55,008 nt of DNA, from IMG/VR virus record IMGVR_UViG_2925891887_000003; one strand, given 5' to 3'. Shown one piece after another: positions 18,906-19,973 of the stretch. The notes beneath the pieces were generated by a model. The model was not told where the DNA came from. It worked only from the letters and a program-made list of their open reading frames with translations, and ran no database searches. This stretch comes from a virus. Lineage: Duplodnaviria; Heunggongvirae; Uroviricota; Caudoviricetes. Position 1 is the stretch's first letter. Every line of letters starts with the position of its first letter. Both the position numbers and the translations under genes were made by a program.

Positions 18906-19973
18906 GTGACGAATGTTTTTGGGAAGAGAATATATACCCTGGATGTTCTGAGAGGATTTGCCGCACTTTCCGTTGTGTTATGGCATTGGCAACATTTTTT
19001 TATGAAAAAGAATGCTGCATCTGACATAATCATAAACCGCCAACCTTTTTATGAATTTTTTTCCGTCTTTTATCATTACGGTTTATATGCTGTCGAATTG
19101 TTTTTTATGATTTCTGGATTCATATTTTTTTATCTATACGCTGACAATATACACAGCAATAAAACCTCAGCAAAAACTTTTATAGTTAACCGTGTCAGTA
19201 GATTATATCCACTTTATATATTTACATTTGCTGTCGTGGCAATATTGCAAATTATTTTCTTTAAAAGTCATAATTATTTTTTTGTTTATCCTATGAATGA
19301 CATTTACCATGCCATTCTGAATTTATTGATGATTCAATCATGGGGATTTGAGCGAGGTTGGTCCTTCAACGCCCCGACATGGTCCGTGTCGATTGAAGTA
19401 CTTATGTACATGATATTTTTTATATTATGCAAGTTCACATCAAAAACAACATTCATATCAATTTTAATAGTTGCATTATCGTACTACTTTTTCAAAATTA
19501 ACAATCCCATAATGATCGGCGCATTCTCTTTCTTTATTGGTGGTCTGACCTATAAAATTACGATTGCGGCCATAAAAAATATTAGCGCAAAGTTATTTTT
19601 TATTTTTGCTTGTGTTTTTCTATTGATCTCATGGGGAGTTATCTTTACCCTGCAAGTAGCAGATATATTCTCAATTATCTTATTCGGGTTTACCTCCATA
19701 ATCTTTTTCCTTGTATCAATTAGCGCAATACGAAACGATTTTGGGAAAAAAATTGAATGGTTGGGTGATATCAGTTATTCATCTTATCTTTTACATTTTC
19801 CTTTGCAAATCATTGTTGTTTATTTAGCTGACAAGATTGGCTATGGACGCGATCTTTTTTACAGTCCCAAGGTATTCATTTTATTCATGCTTACATTAAT
19901 GGCAATTAGCTATATGTCATATATATTCATTGAAAAACCATCGCAACAATTCATCCGAGATAAATTTCATTAA
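18906..19973 (+). CDS. acyltransferase family 3 membrane protein (O-antigen/LPS acetylase-like moron)
   Basis: 355 aa, GTG start, ~10 TM segments; N-terminal LDVLRGFAALSVVLWH is the acyltransferase-3 signature. Very AT-rich. Confidence 0.75.
   Translation: MTNVFGKRIYTLDVLRGFAALSVVLWHWQHFFMKKNAASDIIINRQPFYEFFSVFYHYGLYAVELFFMISGFIFFYLYADNIHSNKTSAKTFIVNRVSRLYPLYIFTFAVVAILQIIFFKSHNYFFVYPMNDIYHAILNLLMIQSWGFERGWSFNAPTWSVSIEVLMYMIFFILCKFTSKTTFISILIVALSYYFFKINNPIMIGAFSFFIGGLTYKITIAAIKNISAKLFFIFACVFLLISWGVIFTLQVADIFSIILFGFTSIIFFLVSISAIRNDFGKKIEWLGDISYSSYLLHFPLQIIVVYLADKIGYGRDLFYSPKVFILFMLTLMAISYMSYIFIEKPSQQFIRDKFH

Follow-up and report, generated by a model that had tools for sequence, protein, structure and literature searches.

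A prophage-borne acyltransferase-3 gene in the lysogenic-conversion slot of an SfV-like prophage: a candidate modifier of the bacterial cell surface

The 55,008-nucleotide stretch of viral DNA analysed here (IMG/VR record IMGVR_UViG_2925891887_000003, Caudoviricetes; hereafter the window, meaning the whole stretch) carries at positions 18906–19973, on the plus strand, a gene of the acyltransferase-3 (AT3) family. This gene encodes an uncharacterised, prophage-borne, AT3-only acyltransferase, which is intact, selected and mobile, and which occupies the canonical lysogenic-conversion slot of its prophage. An earlier note, made from the letters of the window alone, had put it forward as a candidate lysogenic-conversion gene, and "candidate" proves to be the right strength, given an intact AT3 gene, an SfV-like slot and relatives located by O-polysaccharide clusters and phage fibre genes. 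Its role as a modifier of the cell surface of the lysogen is credible, and the gene is in this respect an ordinary candidate. Judging by analogy with characterised enzymes and by the neighbourhoods of its relatives, the activity would consist, with a probability that we put at roughly 0.55, of O-acetylating O-polysaccharide on the periplasmic side of the membrane, with acetyl-CoA as the donor, changing both antigenicity and phage adsorption. That the gene changes the serotype of its host is something that we infer.

The reading frame had been proposed at 18906–19973, and it was recovered exactly, as an open reading frame (ORF) of 355 amino acids on the plus strand with a GTG start and its stop codon included. 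In E. coli strain 22AR0322, the chromosome of which matches the first 24 kb of the window at 100% identity, PGAP/RefSeq annotates an identical coding sequence, WP_000185984.1, under the name "acyltransferase family protein". The protein matches the Pfam profile PF01757 (Acyl_transf_3) over residues 10–334 (profile positions 2–320 of 326, E 1.4e-24, 87.3 bits for a cutoff of 31 bits) as well as PHROG 3333, "O-acetyltransferase" (E 1.4e-40), and a search of NCBIfam returned no named family. The N-terminal LDxLRGxAAL signature that had been read from the sequence is indeed present (L12-D13-V14-L15-R16-G17-F18-A19-A20-L21), and the description of the protein as a polytopic acyltransferase is upheld by the PF01757 match, the catalytic motifs of the family and the ten helices of the structural model. 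AT3 enzymes acetylating carbohydrates share an R/K-X10-H motif in transmembrane helix (TMH) 1, an FFXISG motif and an RXXR motif on TMH3, and in the characterised members ten TMH form a pore able to admit acetyl-CoA (PMC7448272, PMC9833829). The window protein possesses all three motifs, namely R16 and H27, F66-F67-M-I-S70-G71 and R96-V-S-R99. When it was aligned with 33 homologues at 39–86% identity, residues R16, H27, F66, F67, S70, G71, R96 and R99 were found to be invariant among the 34 members, and the window protein conforms to each of the 66 invariant columns of this alignment. The confident AlphaFold model computed from the same alignment (predicted local distance difference test, pLDDT, 90.5; predicted template modelling score, pTM, 0.89) displays ten long helices up to the C-terminus, i.e. 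the ten-TMH fold of the solved TmAT enzymes. Because this model ends after the tenth helix, the enzyme is a stand-alone AT3 protein like Oac rather than an AT3-SGNH fusion like OafA or OatA; its architecture is likewise AT3-only, with a single Pfam domain and no SGNH gene next to it.

By analogy with Oac, OafA and OafB, we propose that the product is a working stand-alone O-acyltransferase, most probably an O-acetyltransferase, and that its gene is an accessory "moron", transcribed independently in the fibre-proximal cargo slot of a temperate phage related to SfV. [quoted passage not shown] The likeliest acceptor would be the undecaprenyl-linked O-antigen, before its ligation to the lipid A-core. 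The surface of the lysogen would be altered as a result, with a different antigenicity and a reduced adsorption of the phages that use the modified glycan.

Regarding the maintenance of the gene, five alleles were compared (the window, LH09-a, the circular element of AH02, IAI1 and Citrobacter), all of them intact, 1,068 bp long and with the same GTG start. The pairwise ratios of nonsynonymous to synonymous substitutions (dN/dS) range from 0.07 to 0.19, including the comparisons with Citrobacter, and these values, together with the five intact alleles, indicate that the gene is maintained by purifying selection. Since more than 2,000 homologues are found in a large protein database, and since the 66 invariant columns are kept and the five alleles are intact, a chance ORF is excluded. 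The gene had moreover been described as very AT-rich, and this is borne out by a guanine plus cytosine (GC) content of 32.0%, compared with 47.5% for the tail-fibre assembly gene, 55% for the fibre gene and structural module and 49.6% for the whole element bounded by the attachment (att) sites.

The placement of the gene inside a prophage cargo module was correct as well: it lies between the tail-fibre assembly gene and the att site of an SfV-like prophage. Starting at position 21275 and continuing to the right, the window shares 97.9% identity with Shigella phage SfV and about 97% with SfII, SfI and SfIV. The integrase gene (ORF list, 52387–53550, plus strand) adjoins an intact tRNA-Thr(CGT) gene (ARAGORN, 53565–53640, minus strand), which we take to be thrW; thrW is the integration site of SfV and SfII. 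The 417-amino-acid ORF situated beyond this tRNA gene can be read as proA by synteny. A distal att copy, corresponding to the 3' part of thrW, was located at 11174–11219 as an exact 46-bp repeat of 53565–53610, and from the positions of the two copies the att-bounded element extends from 11220 to 53564, that is 42.3 kb, for a genome size of 41.5 kb in SfII. Next to the distal copy, 11173–11344 is 96% identical to the intergenic region between int and gtrA of SfV and SfII, the similarity continuing for 125 bp after the att copy, up to 11344.

In SfV, the genes follow each other in the order tail fibre, fibre assembly, terminator, gtrV-gtrB-gtrA, attP and int, and in SfII the acyltransferase gene SfII_25, which we take to be oacD, the SfII O-acetyltransferase gene, comes directly after the fibre assembly gene in convergent orientation. 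The AT3 gene of the window has the same position and orientation as SfII_25 relative to the fibre assembly gene. A review places oacD on the SfII genome (PMC9558356). The gtr genes are absent from the prophage of the window, and what is left of the attP-gtrA intergenic region beside the fibre assembly gene is a 46–53-nt copy of the attP-proximal hairpin at 20129–20181. A layout with a receptor-binding gene facing a convergent oac gene is also found in Sf6 and phiV10, and the window gene shares the slot of the acetyltransferases of serotype-converting phages: it is borne by a temperate phage, beside a receptor-binding gene and the att/int region.

Several features suggest that the gene is expressed from its own transcription unit. 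A Shine-Dalgarno sequence, AAGAGG (18894–18899, plus strand), stands 6 nt before the GTG and is unchanged in four alleles. In the comparison of these alleles, the roughly 520 bp preceding the start codon have a mean column identity of 97%, matching the conservation of the gene itself, and this upstream region (18383–18905, plus strand), which presumably bears the promoter, moves with the AT3 gene. A terminator-like hairpin composed of an A-tract, a stem and a U-tract (18375–18414, plus strand), recognised from its fold and from its repetition, separates the AT3 gene from PD-T4-3, the nuclease gene preceding it, 20 nt after the stop codon of the latter. On the other side, 18 nt after the AT3 stop codon, a near-perfect hairpin with a 13-bp stem (19991–20027, plus strand) has a predicted RNA fold of -21 kcal/mol (z -4.06), and none of 200 shuffled sequences was as stable. 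With a GC content of 32% versus 55%, a strand opposite to that of the late genes, its own Shine-Dalgarno sequence and hairpins on both sides, the gene has the composition and orientation of a moron, and it is likely, as far as sequence features can tell, that it is transcribed independently as such.

A second hairpin with a U-rich tail marks the end of the portable cassette (20129–20181, plus strand); the hairpin proper spans 20129–20163, about 155 nt after the AT3 stop codon, with a fold of -20.2 kcal/mol (z -3.4). The segment 20129–20181 is a 53-nt direct repeat, at 91% identity, of 11296–11348, and it is also 91% identical to SfV 20470–20515 and SfII 24713–24758, both located between attP and gtrA. 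The SfII counterpart overlaps a rho-independent terminator annotated at SfII 24720–24766. The copy at 11296–11348 stands at the att end of the element and the one at 20129–20181 marks the place where the gtr genes would be. It is possible that this repeated attP-side hairpin is an element downstream of int similar to sib/tI of lambda. A phase variation of the Dam/OxyR type, as in the gtr and oafB operons, was considered and rejected, the 550-bp upstream region containing a single GATC. An Rfam scan of 17000–20300 gave only CssrB, below threshold (19.8 versus 76 bits), a match that we ascribe to chance. Two upstream homopolymers vary among the four alleles, a C-tract at 18427–18434 (C8, C8, C8 and C6) and an A-tract at 18458–18464 (A7, A7, A8 and A9). 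Within the gene, the reading frame of a database cluster representative, P0004 (66 members), is broken by shifts at the coding T7 (18995–19001) and A7 (19746–19752) tracts. These frameshifts and the variable homopolymers could reflect either a slippage-based on/off switching or homopolymer errors of long-read sequencing.

The genomic neighbourhoods of ten relatives were sampled in order to place the gene within its subfamily. The closest one, from Citrobacter freundii (86% identity), occupies the equivalent slot at the end of an SfV-like prophage. The relatives from Serratia marcescens (49%) and Klebsiella aerogenes (47%) are found on the opposite strand, between a Gp53-like fibre gene and a large fibre or beta-helix tailspike gene of other myovirus prophages, and the one from Serratia plymuthica (49%) lies in a P2-like prophage remnant. 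Outside Enterobacteriaceae, all four chromosomal relatives sampled (P. savastanoi, 43%; X. albilineans, 43%; Pseudomonas spp., 41%; Massilia, 43%) are located in or beside O-polysaccharide clusters of the ABC-transporter type, which contain wzm and wzt with a Wzt_C domain, tandem polymerases of glycosyltransferase (GT) family 4 and a terminating methyltransferase. The P. savastanoi cluster has in addition sugar-nucleotide genes of the rml type, both Pseudomonas copies adjoin a GtrA/GtrB/GT-C-like set for periplasmic modification, and the Xanthomonas locus includes a GtrA-like gene. These genes of the Pseudomonas syringae group, Xanthomonas albilineans and Massilia form a true subfamily with the AT3 gene of the window, being 41–43% identical over the full length and retaining all invariant residues, but they are chromosomal and not phage-borne. 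By guilt by association, they provide the strongest evidence that the subfamily may act on O-polysaccharide after its export.

Comparison with known enzymes places the gene at a distance from all of them. SfII_25 is likewise a stand-alone AT3 protein of about 350 amino acids, encoded in the equivalent slot of a nearly identical backbone (tail genes about 97.5% identical), convergent with the tail-fibre assembly gene and on the att side; however, apart from the common Pfam family no relation is detectable, with a BLASTP E of 0.09 and an hhalign probability of 0.9%, and SfII keeps gtrABII whereas the prophage of the window is devoid of gtr genes. OacD catalyses the 6-O-acetylation of GlcNAc in the S. 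flexneri O-antigen. With respect to SfII_25, the AT3 gene thus compares as a non-orthologous replacement and not as an allele. The Oac protein of Sf6 (OacA) is also AT3-only, with ten TMH and the R-X10-H, FFXISG and RXXR motifs, and its gene is convergent with the receptor-binding gene and near int/att (PMC7448272), but over 288 aligned columns the identity is 26%, a similarity at the family level (hhalign probability 84%, E 7e-6). Furthermore, Sf6 is a P22-like podovirus, and its Oac is tied to the rhamnose backbone of S. flexneri, whereas the O-antigens of the hosts in which the AT3 gene of the window resides are unrelated. Among the annotated genes of phage records, the nearest relative is the uncharacterised gp49 of Escherichia phage TL-2011b, which aligns over the full length in hhalign (probability 98.7%, E 2.6e-16) and is 26.5% identical by tblastn. 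This gene is annotated as an O-acetyltransferase and located directly downstream of a gene for a 697-amino-acid hypothetical protein that we take to be tailspike-like; it differs by its identity of only about 26%, by the type of phage and by its co-directional orientation.

NeaT (c0970), from a P2-like prophage of strain CFT073, resembles the AT3 protein by its PF01757 domain, its GC content of about 30%, its convergence with a tail-fibre assembly gene and its rarity in E. coli, but no homology was detected beyond the Pfam level (hhalign probability 2.2%), and NeaT has an infection phenotype, reported for bacteraemia (PMC3573123). Orthology was hence rejected for NeaT as for OacD, on these hhalign probabilities, and it was rejected as well for the Oac protein of phiV10 (1.1%). 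As for gtrABV of SfV, it belongs to the same backbone (97.9%), to the same site, taken as thrW, and to the same slot between the fibre assembly gene and attP; it is however a three-protein glucosylation system, versus a single acyltransferase, and the two share no homology. The AT3 gene is therefore best described, on this comparison, as a non-orthologous occupant of the slot that SfV-type phages use for O-antigen modification.

The fibre genes facing the AT3 gene comprise a tail-fibre assembly gene (20234–20650, minus strand; PF02413, E 1.1e-21; PHROG 188), with which it is convergent, and a tail-fibre gene (20650–21576, minus strand; PF21722) forming an intact ORF of 308 amino acids. This fibre is a chimera, as its residues 1–101 are 96–97% identical to SfV orf21 and SfII_23 while its glycine-rich tip, residues 83–308, is 86% identical to the IAI1 fibre. 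Where the window has this single intact ORF, RefSeq shows two features, a "StfP pseudogene" followed by a separate "glycine-rich domain protein". Among 5,426 complete E. coli genomes, 48 carry the cassette, and a full block made of the GIY-YIG nuclease, AT3, fibre assembly and glycine-rich tip genes is present in about 42 records. The SfV-like carriers differ by their integration modules, with thrW in the window, a tRNA-Pro gene beside yejM in LH09-a and an integrase of the dusA type in AH02. In AH02 and CT01, a complete SfV-like phage genome of 43,680 bp was deposited as a separate circular "plasmid" record (NZ_CP081704.1; also NZ_CP081794.1), the sequence being present in the chromosome too, and this 43.7-kb circular assembly suggests a phage competent for excision. 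The cargo of AH02 is arranged in the order int, DinI, type II restriction-modification (R-M), GIY-YIG, AT3 and fibre assembly.

The cassette is not confined to this backbone. A block of 2.9 kb made of the upstream region, AT3, the fibre assembly gene and the fibre tip (window 18383–21288, 94% identity) is inserted, in IAI1 as in four further genomes, in an unrelated myovirus prophage with tail genes of the DUF2612/DUF3383 type. In Citrobacter, homology is limited to 18787–20173 and the fibre tip differs, and a strict coupling of AT3 to one fibre tip was rejected for this reason. The IAI1 and Citrobacter blocks hence identify the AT3 gene as a discrete mobile cassette, often but not always accompanied by a receptor-binding tip; this cassette occurs in two genera, and the fibre tips beside it are of at least two kinds. 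The gene itself was found in no genome of an isolated phage, the best tblastn match (38% identity) being an unannotated faecal contig. One carrier genome contains an insertion sequence, IS1, in or beside the AT3 gene, which is unannotated there, and a second genome has another IS1.

The gene preceding AT3 encodes a GIY-YIG nuclease (17531–18355, plus strand; PF22945) identified as PD-T4-3 by PADLOC (PDLC04031, E 3.8e-140, profile positions 1–255 of 256), with a start placed by PGAP at window position 17582. We take PD-T4-3 to be a single-gene defence against T-even phages. PD-T4-3 and AT3 occur together in about 42 E. coli records, and each is also found without the other. The AT3 protein itself belongs to no defence model of PADLOC, the library of which covers known and candidate anti-phage systems. 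With a type II R-M system at the equivalent place in AH02, the AT3/PD-T4-3 region is a prophage cargo and defence hotspot, and a surface-modifying enzyme fits such company as a barrier at the level of adsorption. A hairpin-containing element with the core TTGCATACRACGTGKCTRCGG flanks PD-T4-3, at about 17351–17386 and at 18375–18414, and a longer version follows DinI in AH02; it may mark the edge of a cassette or act as a shared terminator.

A number of observations weigh against the O-acetylation of a specific O-antigen by the AT3 enzyme. No orthology to a characterised O-antigen acetyltransferase was found among those compared (Sf6 Oac, OacD, phiV10 Oac and NeaT), and the relative from Kluyvera georgiana (59%) is chromosomal, with neither polysaccharide nor phage genes around it. 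Scanning 18356–18905 with the sigma-70 consensus revealed no recognisable promoter, TACAAT at 18856–18861 having no good -35 element, and H-NS may silence AT-rich genes of this kind. The O-antigens of the carriers, considered for three of the 48 (22AR0322, PC-NDM34 and IAI1), are the most telling. From a classical serotype-converting enzyme one would expect carriers with a common O-antigen bearing the acceptor, which is not what they have. In 22AR0322, the cluster (rfbBDAC-wzx-glf-...-wzy) is of the rhamnose/galactofuranose (Rha/Galf) type, which occurs in 17 genomes, with 22AR0322 as the only AT3 carrier among them. PC-NDM34 has a 100% identical prophage region but a mannose-type cluster (GT2-GT4-wzx-wzy-GT-GT4-manC-manB) without rml genes. 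IAI1 is presumably O8, an ABC-transporter mannan, and one carrier record is named O8:H8. Moreover, glf of 22AR0322 (NZ_CP195467.1, 1930901–1931969; locus L018, 4902–5970) measures 1,069 bp and has a 23-bp deletion relative to the intact gene of TUM9868 (1,092 bp; locus L026, 1442–2533), and owing to this frameshift 22AR0322, the probable host of the window, may be a rough strain devoid of O-antigen. A link between AT3 carriage and one O-type was sought and was not found among these three carriers and 17 Rha/Galf genomes. The O-antigen cluster of 22AR0322 also contains IS630 and ISAs1 fragments, common to other genomes of its O-type. At least two, and probably three, unrelated O-antigen clusters are thus represented among the carriers, enough to say that the AT3 gene is not tied to one O-type, and the acceptor need not be a specific O-antigen because these clusters are unrelated. 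Three readings remain, namely an acceptor-tolerant enzyme, a conserved glycan as substrate, or a function exerted in a subset of hosts.

That the enzyme acylates a conserved envelope glycan, such as the lipopolysaccharide (LPS) core, the enterobacterial common antigen (ECA), osmoregulated periplasmic glucans, colanic acid or poly-N-acetylglucosamine (PNAG), and modifies the surface independently of the O-type, is the main rival reading and is possible, if on the unlikely side; the consequence, held at the same strength, would be a masking of phage receptors or changes in aggregation and host interaction like those of NeaT. This would agree with the independence of carriage from O-type, identical prophages being found across different O-types, with the association of the cassette with at least two fibre tips in two genera, and with its accompaniment by genes of general defence, namely PD-T4-3 and, in AH02, type II R-M. 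OpgC is one of the E. coli AT3 enzymes that act on a glycan other than the O-antigen. Others, such as WecH, do so too (PMC9558356, PMC9833829), and NeaT, a similarly placed prophage AT3 moron, alters aggregation and virulence with no known effect on the O-antigen (PMC3573123). However, the relation to NeaT is undetectable beyond the Pfam level, NCBIfam matched no named family and thereby gave no hint that the protein is the orthologue of a named E. coli AT3 enzyme, and the four chromosomal relatives sampled outside Enterobacteriaceae are at O-polysaccharide clusters rather than at core or ECA loci. A broader and more speculative proposal, which we hold to be rather unlikely, would make the cassette an O-type-independent receptor-masking gene, acting on a common E. 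coli glycan (core or ECA) or as a promiscuous O-antigen acetylase, portable between phage backbones and genera, and part of an as yet undescribed defence hotspot (DinI, R-M, PD-T4-3 and AT3) of SfV-like phages between att and the fibre genes.

Heterogeneity of O-types among carriers, the glf frameshift of the probable host, the outcome of the promoter scan, the frameshifted P0004 and the IS1 copies in two genomes would also suit a gene that is mostly a passenger, active in the few hosts with the right acceptor sugar and elsewhere, as in the host of the window, silent or without substrate, hitch-hiking with the fibre tip and the defence cargo. We find this doubtful, since dN/dS stays between 0.07 and 0.19 from the E. 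coli alleles to Citrobacter, all five alleles are intact and the upstream region is conserved equally with the gene. Finally, O-acetylation of peptidoglycan in the manner of OatA or PatA, or acylation of a non-carbohydrate substrate, is highly improbable. Relatives do carry the generic label "peptidoglycan/LPS O-acetylase OafA/YrhL" and the substrates of AT3 enzymes are diverse (PMC9558356), but the SGNH domain or partner gene typical of the characterised peptidoglycan systems (PMC7448272) is lacking, the protein finishes after the tenth helix and the contexts of its relatives are O-polysaccharide and phage receptor-binding modules.

Other parts of the window add to the description of this prophage and its surroundings. 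A KAP-family NTPase gene (41586–42917, plus strand; 33% GC; PADLOC candidate system PDC-S20, E 1e-176), located between the holin gene and Q but on the other strand, gives the prophage a second moron of the defence type. To the left, a P4-like satellite (1–11011), with a primase-helicase, an Icd-like protein, a polarity suppression protein, ogr/Delta and an integrase (9832–11010), is in tandem with the prophage at the same thrW att repeat and carries the defence reverse transcriptases Drt3a and Drt3b (6591–9863, minus strand). Between the attP-proximal DNA (to 11344) and the defence cargo, 11569–16960 (minus strand) encodes a 476-amino-acid hypothetical protein, a DUF2254 protein and a 667-amino-acid BCCT transporter. 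This block is inside the att-bounded element and matches PHROGs 27609, 27913 and 19848 nearly over their full length, yet it is absent from isolated phage genomes, and it may be cargo of the phage or what is left of an older island. Within the gene of a 313-amino-acid protein of the replication region, 47577–47651 contains four tandem overlapping copies of a 15-nt-spaced repeat similar to CAGATTTYGAYGSRT, which look like the iterons of a phage origin.

Genes of this kind are already well known, and the main value of the AT3 gene is hence that of a defined candidate for LPS chemistry rather than that of a conceptual surprise. If the preferred reading of an active O-polysaccharide acetyltransferase holds, about 1% of sequenced E. 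coli would have an altered surface because of this gene, clinical isolates of the carbapenemase era and livestock isolates among them, with effects on O-serotyping, on recognition by antibodies and glycoconjugate vaccines and on the host range of therapeutic phages. SfV-type converting phages drive the serotype diversity of Shigella flexneri. An active enzyme would mean that these phages use the same slot in E. coli for a different acetyltransferase, packaged together with anti-phage defence genes.

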